Source of the DNA: a virus
Taxonomy: Duplodnaviria > Heunggongvirae > Uroviricota > Caudoviricetes
IMG/VR virus record: IMGVR_UViG_2537562195_000005
Direction: 5' to 3' (one strand)
Length of the DNA stretch: 44,529 nucleotides
Position numbers: made by a program. This document shows, piece by piece, positions 1-3,000 of the stretch; position 1 is the stretch's first letter, and the number at the start of each line of letters is the position of its first letter.

Positions 1-3000
1 ATGAAATTTGATGACTATCTGGATAAAATGTCACTTCTGGTGAATGAAGGAAAGCTCGAACCTGATATTTTAAGCAAAATGCGAGATGCTGCACCGAAAT
101 TAATTGACTTTGCTAAGTCGTTTGACCCAAACTCAAAGGAAAAGATTAAAATACTTACAGATACTTCTAATTTAATTTATGATTTGTTCGGGGTTAAATC
201 GGCGAAATAATATGTGAAGTTCTTCGATGGTATGGAAGGCATTACATAAAAGAACCTAATACTTATTGGGTTCTTTTTTCTTCTATCAGTGCCATTAGCA
301 GGAAGAGATATCACCGGAGTTTAATGTGTGATTTTTTATTTATCGTCGAACCTGGATTGTTTATCATTGTCCTTAACAAGGCTAACGGCTAATAAGATTA
401 TTTCCATCACTTCGTGAGAGCTTCATGCCTTGATTTGATCTCAATTTTCTTTTGCAATGAGACAGGCGCTTCCTGTTGTTATGGTATAGTACCCCGCTAT
501 TGAGCCTCCTGAACAGTGATGCTGAATAACATAACCCAATGATATATCGATAAAATAATCTCTACATTTGAAAATGCACGGTAATTCTGAAATGCAAAAA
601 ATCAACCAAACCAGCGCAATGCCTGAAAAAACTGACGTTCACTGGAGTGGTCGGTTTAGCGTTGCACCAATGCTCGATAGGATGTATCGTTTTTGAAAAA
701 CAATTGGTTATGTGTTTTGTGGGAGCCTATTGGGAACCTATCAAAAGATTTTTTGTCATAAACAGTGTGAGATGCAAAACACTGTGATGGTAGCTTTGTT
801 GACATCGCAACGTCTGCAGGTATAATTCGCCACCAATTTGTAACCTGTGTATATGTACAGTTGTTTACTGGTTATAAACACAGTGATTTGCTCTTGCAAT
901 CTTCCAAAATTTTTTTGTTCGTGCTAGGTTGAGATAACAGTGATGATACTGTTTGCACATTCAGTGTAATGAGGAGGGTGGTTATGTACAGCCCGGTACA
1001 AATAGCCAATAAATTCATAACGTTGGGAAACCAACATCATAATCCTCTGACCCACATGCAACTGCAGAAGCTTACTTATATTGCCCATGGTTACTATTTA
1101 GCATTAACAGGTAAGCCTTTGCTCAACGAATGTGTCTCTGCGTGGAAGTACGGTCCGGTTATTCCCGGAATGTACGATGCTTTCAAAGATTATGGGAATA
1201 AGCCTGTTACGAATGTAGCAGTAGCTCCTTTTGGTGGCATTGTTACTATGGATCCGCAAGCAGAGAGCATTATAGGGGCTGTTTATAAATTTTACGGCTC
1301 GAAAAATGGAATTGAGTTATCAACTCTAACTCATATGCCAGGTACGCCTTGGTCACAAGCTTATAATGGTATTGGCTCGTCGATCATCTCAAATGATGCG
1401 ATCAAGGCTTATTATCATGATTTATTGAATAACCGACAGCAATGTCAGGGCCTCTGAAAAAGTAATATTCAGGGATGACATGTCTCGCAATTCAGATATC
1501 TATAAACTTATCGGAGCGGCTGCAGGTGTTGAAAATGGTCGCTCTGAAGCATCCTTAAACTATACTGACAGTCAAGAACAGGTTTTTAAATCTGCATTTG
1601 AGTCGTCTAATCATGAGAGCGATGATGGTTCTTCTTCAGAAAATAAAGCTATTCTGGAGGAAGAAGAGTTTGGCTCTAATACTGGTGCATTGCATGAGTT
1701 TATGCAGCAGCACAGAATGGACAGTCTTCAAGCTCAGCTTGATATGCTCAAATCACAAGTACGCGATAAGATAGCTGACGCAACTGGTAAAGAAATAGAC
1801 AATGAACTTCGGACAAAAATGGCATCATTCACGGTTTGTTTTATGTCGTGGTGGTGCTTATTTGTAGCCGTAATGTTTGTATCGTTTCTTATTGCTCATG
1901 AAGGAAAGCCTCCAGTTGAAGCAATCGTTGCATTACTGGGTACAAGTACAATTAGCATTGTTGGTTTGGTTGGTTTCGTTGTTAGTGGATTGTTCAAATC
2001 AAGAAAAGATGGCGATAAAGAAAAATAACCCGTATATACACGGGTTATTCATGGTTTTAGTTTAGTTATATTTTTGTTTATCCGTTCTGACCTTTTCCCA
2101 CTCAGCTCGTCCTTCTTCTCGTCTTTTGTCTATGTATTCCGCAAGATCCTGAATATTGATGCAACGTTTTGCTTTTTGTGATGTGCCGATGCGATATGTT
2201 GGAACGGGCAACTTACAAGCGTTTGCTTTTGCTTCTGCCGTGGCTGGACTCATGCCAAAGTACTTTTGGCTAACTGCTGAGAGTTCAATGTTAGGGGTAT
2301 TGAATTCAGCCATCAGTAAAAACAAGGTGTTCATAATTTTCTCCATCAAAACCGGCTGCACCCGGGAAAATCATAATTCTGTGCTGGTGGCAGGAATTAG
2401 TTTCTGCCAGATAGCGGAAACATATTTTGCCTGATGACGGGCATCAGCCAGGGCGTTGTGCCGTTCGCCATCGAAAGGCATGTCCATTTTTGGGTCGAAT
2501 CCGATGGAACGCCCAAGCGTAACGATCGTGCGTACATCGTGGTCATTCCAGTACGCCCACGGGCAGATTTGTCCTGCTCGCTCGTAAGCTCCACGTAAAA
2601 TTACGTTGTCGAAGGTGGCCCCGTTACCCCAGACTTTTAAATATTTTGTATTGTCTGCATGCTGATTAATGAAATGGCTCAGTTCAGAGAGTGCATCGCT
2701 GATCGACAAAGTATCATCAATACAGATTGCAGCTCGTGCTTCAGAGCTCTGTTTCAACCACCACAGGATGGTATCGCCGTCAGGTGTAGCTCCTTGCTTC
2801 ATAGCACTGTCTAGGCTGACAACCGTATAGAATTCTTGTCCGATGTCTCCTGTTTCTGGGGTGAAGAACACCGCGCCAATGGAAACGATCGGTGCATCCT
2901 TATTTTTCCCCATCGTCTCAAGGTCGATCATTAAGTTGTTCATCACTTCACCTCTTGTGATGGTTTTGCTGCAAAATACTCGATACCTTTATCCCAGATA

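Follow-up and report, generated by a model that had tools for sequence, protein, structure and literature searches.

The DNA considered here is a 44,529-nucleotide (nt) stretch from a virus of the Caudoviricetes (IMG/VR record IMGVR_UViG_2537562195_000005), referred to as the window; coordinates are window positions unless a fetched relative locus, given an L-number, is named. Close to its left end lie two genes, panA and panT, which most probably represent the known PanA-PanT operon carried as a moron, with its own promoter, genes, terminator and low G+C content, at the attL end of a prophage and under the control of LexA, the repressor of the host SOS (DNA-damage) response. The gene pair is the already published PanA-PanT toxin-antitoxin system, which went unrecognised in an earlier description of the cassette made without database searches (the sequence-only reading). 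An SOS switch on panAT is well supported, the action of LexA itself being predicted from the DNA. Since both proteins have already been characterised, the value of the analysis lies in the regulation, and the part that is apparently unreported is the LexA-guarded strong promoter of panAT, recurring through the toxin family.

panA (984–1457, + strand) encodes a stand-alone Panacea-domain antitoxin of 157 residues, identical to WP_000287252.1. The resemblance to DUF4065 noted earlier was borne out by a profile hidden Markov model search, in which residues 27–123 matched positions 1–112 of the 113-position Pfam profile SocA_Panacea (PF13274; E = 5.9e-18, 66.3 bits, cut-off 25.7). RefSeq carries WP_000287252.1, named 'Panacea domain-containing protein', on 100% identical DNA with the gene start at 984, and in the GenBank record of phage PhiR47_1 the two genes already bear the names PanA and PanT. 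WP_000287252.1 is the validated antitoxin of 'PanA-PanT Esc. col.' from the Shiga-toxigenic Escherichia coli (STEC) O31, where its gene precedes that of a cluster T3 toxin, WP_000019185.1, with a 22-nt gap (Kurata et al., 2022; Table 1 and dataset). It neutralises WP_000019185.1 by direct binding, and PanA proteins form complexes with their toxins (Kurata et al., 2022). The window thus has the identical antitoxin, the same gene order and the same gap, panT starting 22 nt past panA as first placed, with a weak ribosome-binding site for panT within the gap.

panT (1480–2028, + strand) encodes a cluster T3 membrane toxin of 182 residues, WP_000089360.1, which is a hypothetical protein in RefSeq. 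Its length and two-helix build are those of the published toxin, and it is 92–93% identical to WP_000019186.1 and WP_000019187.1, sister alleles that stand beside the same PanA in other genomes and fall with this toxin into one 90% cluster. The allele tested was a different one, WP_000019185.1, a sequence absent from the cluster listings, the nine annotated genomes and the Kurata supplements searched for it. A published PanT allele halts transcription, translation and replication together, depolarises the inner membrane and lets SYTOX Green in, which was read as the formation of large pores (Kurata et al., 2022). The toxin-antitoxin pairing first suggested for the two genes accordingly finds its basis in the identity of PanA with the validated antitoxin and in the pore-forming activity published for a close toxin allele (Kurata et al., 2022).

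Hydropathy places two hydrophobic segments in PanT at residues 116–139 and 148–172, and residues 1–115 carry a net charge of −10. The acidic N terminus, the two C-terminal transmembrane segments and the length of 182 residues are therefore as had been described, whereas the proposed N-terminal coiled coil was not confirmed, its best heptad register having only 7 of 14 hydrophobic a/d positions. In the AlphaFold model, which is of low confidence (predicted local distance difference test score, pLDDT, 59.5; predicted template modelling score, pTM, 0.27) and unsuited to a fold search, a disordered acidic stretch (16–55) is followed by a long helix (56–139, or 68–139 in a narrower delimitation) running into the first membrane segment and by a second helix (146–178). 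The C-terminal half is invariant across 31 homologues, and a G-x-x-IDN-x-LR...ALLGTSTISIVGLVGFVVSGLFKS stretch is nearly so. The family is small: a profile search of 1.84 billion proteins yielded 319 representatives (E ≤ 1e-3). Pfam gave no PanT family above threshold (sub-threshold DUF2975, DUF677 and DUF2207_C only), PHROGs places PanT in families of unknown function, and PADLOC returned no significant match for PanA or PanT. A holin identity is disfavoured by the 115-residue cytoplasmic part, the distance from the holin-lysozyme genes and the lack of a holin Pfam match. A type I SOS toxin of the TisB, DinQ or HokE kind is disfavoured by the size of the toxin, by its protein antitoxin and by the lack of an Rfam match within 600–2200. 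Among eight E. coli loci aligned over 984–2028, variable columns make up 8.2% of panT and 3.8% of panA; the PanA protein is identical in most genomes, and PanT alleles differ by 7–8%, chiefly in the N-terminal part and the first membrane helix.

The operon is headed by a sigma-70 promoter on the + strand, TTGACA (799–804) and TATAAT (821–826) separated by a 16-nt spacer, which matches the consensus at 12 of 12 positions, exactly as the sequence-only reading had located it. It is unique of its kind within 200–2400, and its transcript start is predicted near 833. Between this promoter and panA lie predicted LexA boxes, which we scored with a weight matrix for 20-mers that was built from about 30 E. 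coli LexA sites known from the literature and is an approximation. On known E. coli sites the matrix gives 12.2–25.7 bits with a median of 19.6, and it marks sites directly 5′ of DinI-family genes in Klebsiella and in PhiR47_1 that were not used in building it. Box 1 (ACCTGTGTATATGTACAGTT, 843–862, about +10 to +29 from the predicted start) scores 19.7 bits and contains the CTGT-N8-ACAG palindrome (CTGTGTATATGTACAG, 845–860) that the sequence-only reading had reported. Box 2 (TACTGGTTATAAACACAGTG, 866–885, about +33 to +52) has its CTG-N10-CAG core at 868–883, where a second box had been placed, but it is not the weaker of the two, scoring 21.4 bits. A possible box 3 (TACTGTTTGCACATTCAGTG, 947–966, 16.7 bits), which the sequence-only reading missed, lies directly 5′ of the strong ribosome-binding site of panA read from the sequence (GAGGAGGG, 971–978, + strand).

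The palindrome CTGT-N8-ACAG occurs 6 times in the window, compared with 0.46 expected from shuffles. Furthermore, 5 sites of at least 16 bits are present, compared with a mean of 0.01 in 100 dinucleotide shuffles, and 3 of the 5 fall within 843–966. Box 1 is retained in all E. coli-clade loci that have upstream DNA, and box 2 in all E. coli-clade loci (20.2–21.4 bits); box 2 aligns with a weaker box of 13.4 bits in Enterobacter ludwigii. Box 3 is invariant within the E. coli clade and absent from the Enterobacter homologue. The eight E. coli loci are too similar for any test of box conservation.

Could the operon instead be a constitutive toxin-antitoxin unit, with the CTGT/ACAG palindromes inert or bound by another phage or host regulator? 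We consider this quite unlikely. The boxes do sit downstream of the promoter, distant relatives have a box-less promoter directly before panA, and inverted repeats that are not LexA boxes occur nearby, namely ACAGTG-N12-CACTGT at 762–787 and AACAGT-N6-ACTGTT at 936–953, the latter conserved in Enterobacter. However, two of the boxes score above the median of known LexA sites, shuffled sequences essentially never yield such sites, and boxes recur at non-homologous positions across lineages, with a class-specific motif in Alphaproteobacteria. As for a phage regulator, the cI-cro operators of the phage repressor differ from LexA boxes, having TTGCGC-type half-sites.

The two repeats are of interest in their own right. 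That at 762–787 lies just 5′ of the −35 element with its half-sites wrongly oriented for a LexA box, and may serve as an arm site for the integrase or as some other operator. The palindrome at 936–953, AACAGT-GATGAT-ACTGTT, lies in the leader and is conserved in Enterobacter, with GATTAT as the loop. It falls outside the predicted minimum-energy RNA fold. Because the leader fold is ordinary (834–1000, z = −1.04) and Rfam matched no family in 600–2200, the palindrome is more likely a DNA site, or nothing, than an RNA structure. The leader of the Providencia-type loci and L036 has a different stem with a similar GATGAA loop (ACGTGGT-GATGAA-ACCACGT; compare the leaders of L016 and L033–L035), and the two kinds of stem may represent a covarying hairpin, although the leader RNA fold is not significant.

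Relatives of the cassette carry predicted boxes in a similar setting. PanT homologues were collected and their DNA neighbourhoods fetched for box scoring, the close subfamily comprising toxins 60–67% identical to PanT and the diverged viral contigs toxins 35–65% identical. In every fetched locus, from Escherichia to Caulobacter, a SocA_Panacea gene precedes the PanT homologue, and nearly every gammaproteobacterial relative examined has a predicted LexA box 5′ of panA. A homologous promoter, TTGACT-16-TATAAT, is present in Enterobacter hormaechei and E. ludwigii; 21 nt beyond it stands a box of 19–22 bits and after that panA, and E. ludwigii has an additional weak second box. In Salmonella and Klebsiella quasipneumoniae, the upstream region is different and the sole box (17.5–22.7 bits) lies at −24 to −29 from the ATG, a position corresponding to that of box 3 in the window. 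In one Klebsiella lineage, boxes are found solely 700 nt upstream, before a dinI gene. Of the 21 diverged viral loci, 20 have their boxes of 14 bits or more exclusively upstream of panA (17.7–28.7 bits; one box each, except for two overlapping ones in one locus), with none downstream in the roughly 2.3–4.5 kb of each locus. Separately, in Klebsiella L030–L032, LexA boxes at 1626–1645 and 3990–4009 (24–27 bits) flank panAT, each before a gene for a 79-residue PHROG 3893 protein, and together they make a small cluster of putatively SOS-controlled prophage genes.

In Alphaproteobacteria, the gamma-type matrix finds nothing, as expected. The LexA operator of Caulobacter is GTTC-N7-GTTC, or GAAC-N7-GAAC on the reverse complement. 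This motif occurs once in the Niveispirillum locus, 66 nt before panA, and once in the Caulobacter locus, 5 nt before panA, the downstream gene being a PanA homologue in both (36–38% identity, E ~1e-36). These two matches are the sole ones in about 25 kb of alphaproteobacterial sequence, and by our own estimate the chance of both falling into the ~100-nt stretches before panA is about 3e-4. Two other alphaproteobacterial loci have no exact match to GAAC-N7-GAAC, leaving two of four assessable loci positive. It is possible, if doubtful, that SOS control is a family-wide input of the PanT/PanA lineage, acting through class-specific LexA operators in Gamma- and Alphaproteobacteria. The LexA gating proposed from sequence is, as a prediction, backed by the site scores, by the shuffles and by this recurrence in relatives, including the class-appropriate boxes in Alphaproteobacteria.

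Several observations weigh against LexA control of the cassette or limit its reach. LexA binding at the panAT promoter is a prediction, and the scores come from the approximate matrix. Boxes 1 and 2 begin 17 and 40 nt past the −10 element of the sole strong promoter, at about +10 to +52, from where bound LexA could still block it, and not over it; overlap with the −35 or −10 element is commoner, and no promoter overlapping the LexA boxes was found by scan or by eye. LexA boxes downstream of the −10 element are less common, though colicin operons are similar in this respect. The identity of the toxin rests on comparison with sister alleles, not directly with the validated WP_000019185.1, and co-induction of panA and panT does not itself free the toxin. 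Among the relatives, the Providencia-type loci and the phage locus L036 have no box, and in L080 none is seen in 934 nt of upstream DNA. In the P2-like relatives, which form the most distant gammaproteobacterial group and hold panAT between replication gene A and the portal gene, the box lies 200–930 nt upstream, before a small open reading frame (PHROG 698 or 1993) and/or a dinI gene, and panA is preceded by a separate conserved promoter, TATAAT with CGCGCGC after it, that lacks a box. SOS control of panA in these loci would therefore need read-through, and no terminator between box and panA was found in the two loci scanned. Because the P2-like box precedes other genes, part of the association between box and panA may reflect insertion beside an SOS operon.

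The box-less element TATAAT-(T/C)CGCGCGC stands about 150–200 nt upstream of panA in L006, L007, L008, L024, L025 and L028 and is common to loci from Erwinia, Pectobacterium, Buttiauxella, Enterobacter and Serratia; its G+C-rich discriminator hints at stringent control by guanosine tetraphosphate (ppGpp). In the P2-like loci L024 (2975–2996) and L028 (2973–2995), the space between panA and panT is taken up by a strong terminator-like hairpin (GACCCCGC...GCGGGGTT with a T-run after it), which extends into the panT start codon. Such a hairpin would reduce toxin relative to antitoxin transcription; the window has no equivalent.

The boxes might also act on a neighbouring unit, leftward across attP onto int and dinI, or be remnants of an adjacent SOS operon. 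LexA boxes are palindromic and hence directionless, the circular phage genome places int and a dinI-like gene across attP, diverging from panAT, and prophage accessory regions are rich in boxes, the Klebsiella loci holding three within 6.5 kb. Even so, this explanation is very improbable. A separate double box, between int and dinI, belongs to the dinI-like gene, the promoter scan showed no leftward promoter near 843–885, and the boxes of the window lie between a rightward consensus promoter and panA, an arrangement kept in Enterobacter. The double box, seen at the right end of PhiR47_1 (L043 2143–2190), scores 20.7 and 21.2 bits. With int-dinI and panAT diverging from attP once the phage is circular, this prophage family has putatively SOS-controlled accessory genes at both ends.

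How, then, might LexA control of panAT work? In the undamaged lysogen, LexA dimers would occupy boxes 1 and 2 past the promoter, and perhaps box 3, and little PanA or PanT would be made. Upon DNA damage, RecA would become active and LexA would cleave itself, allowing synthesis of a bicistronic panA-panT mRNA. With a strong ribosome-binding site before panA and a weak one before panT, an excess of antitoxin would be expected. PanA would then neutralise PanT by direct binding, as published for the identical PanA with a close toxin allele (Kurata et al., 2022). If PanA were lost, outnumbered or inactivated by a further trigger, the two-helix hairpin of PanT would presumably insert into the membrane, form large pores and depolarise it, as published for the allele (Kurata et al., 2022). 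Damage-triggered toxicity is not implied, because derepression induces the antitoxin together with the toxin. The cassette had been proposed as a DNA-damage-triggered toxin-antitoxin or abortive-infection-like module; the toxin-antitoxin pair agrees with published work and SOS transcription with our predictions, but triggered toxicity does not follow from SOS transcription alone.

PanA has no DNA-binding domain, and Panacea has been argued to be a sensor and not an autoregulator (Ernits et al., 2023), which together leave scope for regulation by the host. Those who described PanAT likewise hold that stand-alone Panacea is probably without autoregulation and state that the cue activating Panacea systems is unknown.

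What the cassette does for its carrier can be addressed with low confidence. We favour, and rank first, a safeguard of the suicide or abortive-infection type, primed by SOS and of benefit to the prophage. Relatives occur alongside reverse-transcriptase and restriction genes in variable regions of prophages: the P2-like relatives adjoin reverse-transcriptase or other accessory genes, and a Providencia relative, in a different context, adjoins type I restriction genes. Prophage induction or the killing of cured cells ranks second, and a TisB-like dormancy third. The second of these would mean that LexA control is real but that PanT serves phage induction as an SOS-timed permeabiliser, holin-like or a killer of cured cells, and not as a defence or dormancy module, which we regard as unlikely. 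LexA cleavage coincides with prophage induction, the panAT genes of the P2/186-like relatives follow a LexA-controlled unit of small open reading frame and dinI after replication gene A, and the published toxin makes large pores. On the other hand, the toxin is made together with a dedicated neutraliser, and the prophage has a separately annotated lysis cassette (holin, lysozyme and lysis protein) far from panT.

The layout of promoter and boxes has its closest parallel in colicin operons, where a near-consensus promoter is followed by tandem LexA boxes just past the −10 element and the lethal function stays off until strong SOS induction. The promoter and two-box arrangement and a lethal, membrane-active product are shared, whereas there is no homology, and besides the exported toxin a colicin operon encodes a lysis lipoprotein and an immunity protein. 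In E. coli K-12, TisB/IstR-1, DinQ/AgrB, HokE and SymE/SymR have a LexA box at the promoter, and all but SymE depolarise the inner membrane. The cassette would work in the same manner as the SOS membrane toxins TisB, DinQ and HokE, combining a LexA box with a depolarising toxin. The K-12 SOS toxins, however, are type I systems, peptides of fewer than 60 residues (SymE is larger and a nuclease) countered by antisense RNA, whereas PanT has 182 residues and a protein antitoxin. HigBA of Caulobacter is a LexA-regulated type II toxin-antitoxin system; together with DinJ-YafQ and YafNO of E. coli, it shares with panAT an operon of protein antitoxin and toxin with a LexA operator. Those toxins are ribosome-dependent RNases and their antitoxins bind DNA, whereas PanT targets the membrane. 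Coliphage 186 has a LexA-controlled p95 operon (tum and the dinI-like orf97) after replication gene A. The P2-like panAT relatives similarly lie directly downstream of a box and a small open reading frame and/or dinI-like gene after gene A; their small open reading frames belong to PHROG families of unknown function and are likened to Tum by position, and the phage of the window is lambdoid, not P2-like. SocAB of Caulobacter, the founding member of Panacea/DUF4065 (type VI), shares the Pfam domain of the antitoxin. SocA acts as an adaptor for ClpXP and promotes the breakdown of SocB, a toxin that binds DnaN; PanT bears no relation to SocB, and complexes of PanA proteins with their toxins have been demonstrated (Kurata et al., 2022).

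The proteins, and LexA-controlled toxin-antitoxin systems as a class (TisB, DinQ, HokE, SymE, DinJ-YafQ, YafNO and HigBA), are already known. We found no statement in the literature that links Panacea/DUF4065 systems to LexA or SOS; neither is mentioned by Kurata et al. (2022) or Ernits et al. (2023), nor do Kurata et al. (2022) mention a promoter for the E. coli pair. A LexA switch on panAT would add a pore-former with a protein antitoxin to the short list of SOS-controlled toxins, and host LexA offers a concrete and cheaply testable hypothesis for the cue of a Panacea system. SOS-inducing antibiotics are already of clinical relevance for strains carrying Shiga toxin 2 (Stx2), and a damage-induced membrane toxin could affect lysis, persistence and toxin release. 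If SOS control proved to be family-wide, temperate phages would carry a pore-former that DNA damage arms and a Panacea 'sensor' antitoxin restrains. A Panacea toxin-antitoxin system would thereby gain its first physiological cue, and TisB a protein-based counterpart carried by phages. Possible uses would then be abortive infection, the killing of cells that lose the excised phage and damage-induced dormancy of Shiga-toxin lysogens.

Within an Stx2 prophage integrated in dusA, the panAT cassette is the first unit at the left end, since a displaced 5′ fragment of host dusA (574–678, + strand) lies directly to its left in every genome inspected, annotated by RefSeq in each as 'tRNA-dihydrouridine synthase, partial'. 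This fragment marks the left prophage junction (attL), with phage DNA from about 676–680, and the PhiR47_1 record begins at window position ~676. As for the terminator, a two-way, terminator-like hairpin at 2024–2049 (10 and 12 pairs on the two strands) ends both the panAT operon and a converging leftward early operon. The cassette region has a G+C content of 39.7%, compared with 52.4% for the whole window, and stx2A (16200–17159) and stx2B (17171–17440) are present, in keeping with the first assignment to the AT-rich accessory arm of an Stx prophage, here attL-proximal in dusA. Kurata et al. (2022) labelled the E. coli PanA-PanT locus 'NotPhage' (PNAS 119:e2102212119); this label needs correcting, as the cassette here clearly forms the end of an Stx2 prophage integrated in dusA.

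Positions 700–2100 are 100% identical in DNA to two complete E. coli genomes, and the cassette occurs in 85 of 5,426 complete E. coli genomes, single-copy and chromosomal each time. It is present in non-Stx phages too, and a protein search of a phage database gave matches only to three close E. coli phages. The dusA attachment site is about 5 kb from host lexA-dinF (window 1–700; L002 1–6000), which is probably coincidental; the host gene order there is lexA, dinF, yjbJ, zur, two DUF2713 genes and dusA.

Further into the window, the positions of stx, Q and a methyltransferase gene were taken from the window itself because NZ_CP027462.1 is not colinear with it past ~10.6 kb. A Q-like antiterminator is encoded, and the DNA methyltransferase gene (14759–15817) lies between it and the block of tRNA genes and stx2AB. 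Over codons 3–10 of the methyltransferase gene lies a LexA-type box (TACTGTAAAAATATCCAGTT, 14767–14786, 22.7 bits), which may tie SOS to the late or Stx region. Another LexA-type box (TACTGTTTTTACATACAGTA, 7187–7206, 24.2 bits) lies inside the gene for a cI-like XRE/S24 repressor (6723–7415, − strand), over the coding sequence of the interdomain linker, where a roadblock and an internal promoter are both possibilities.

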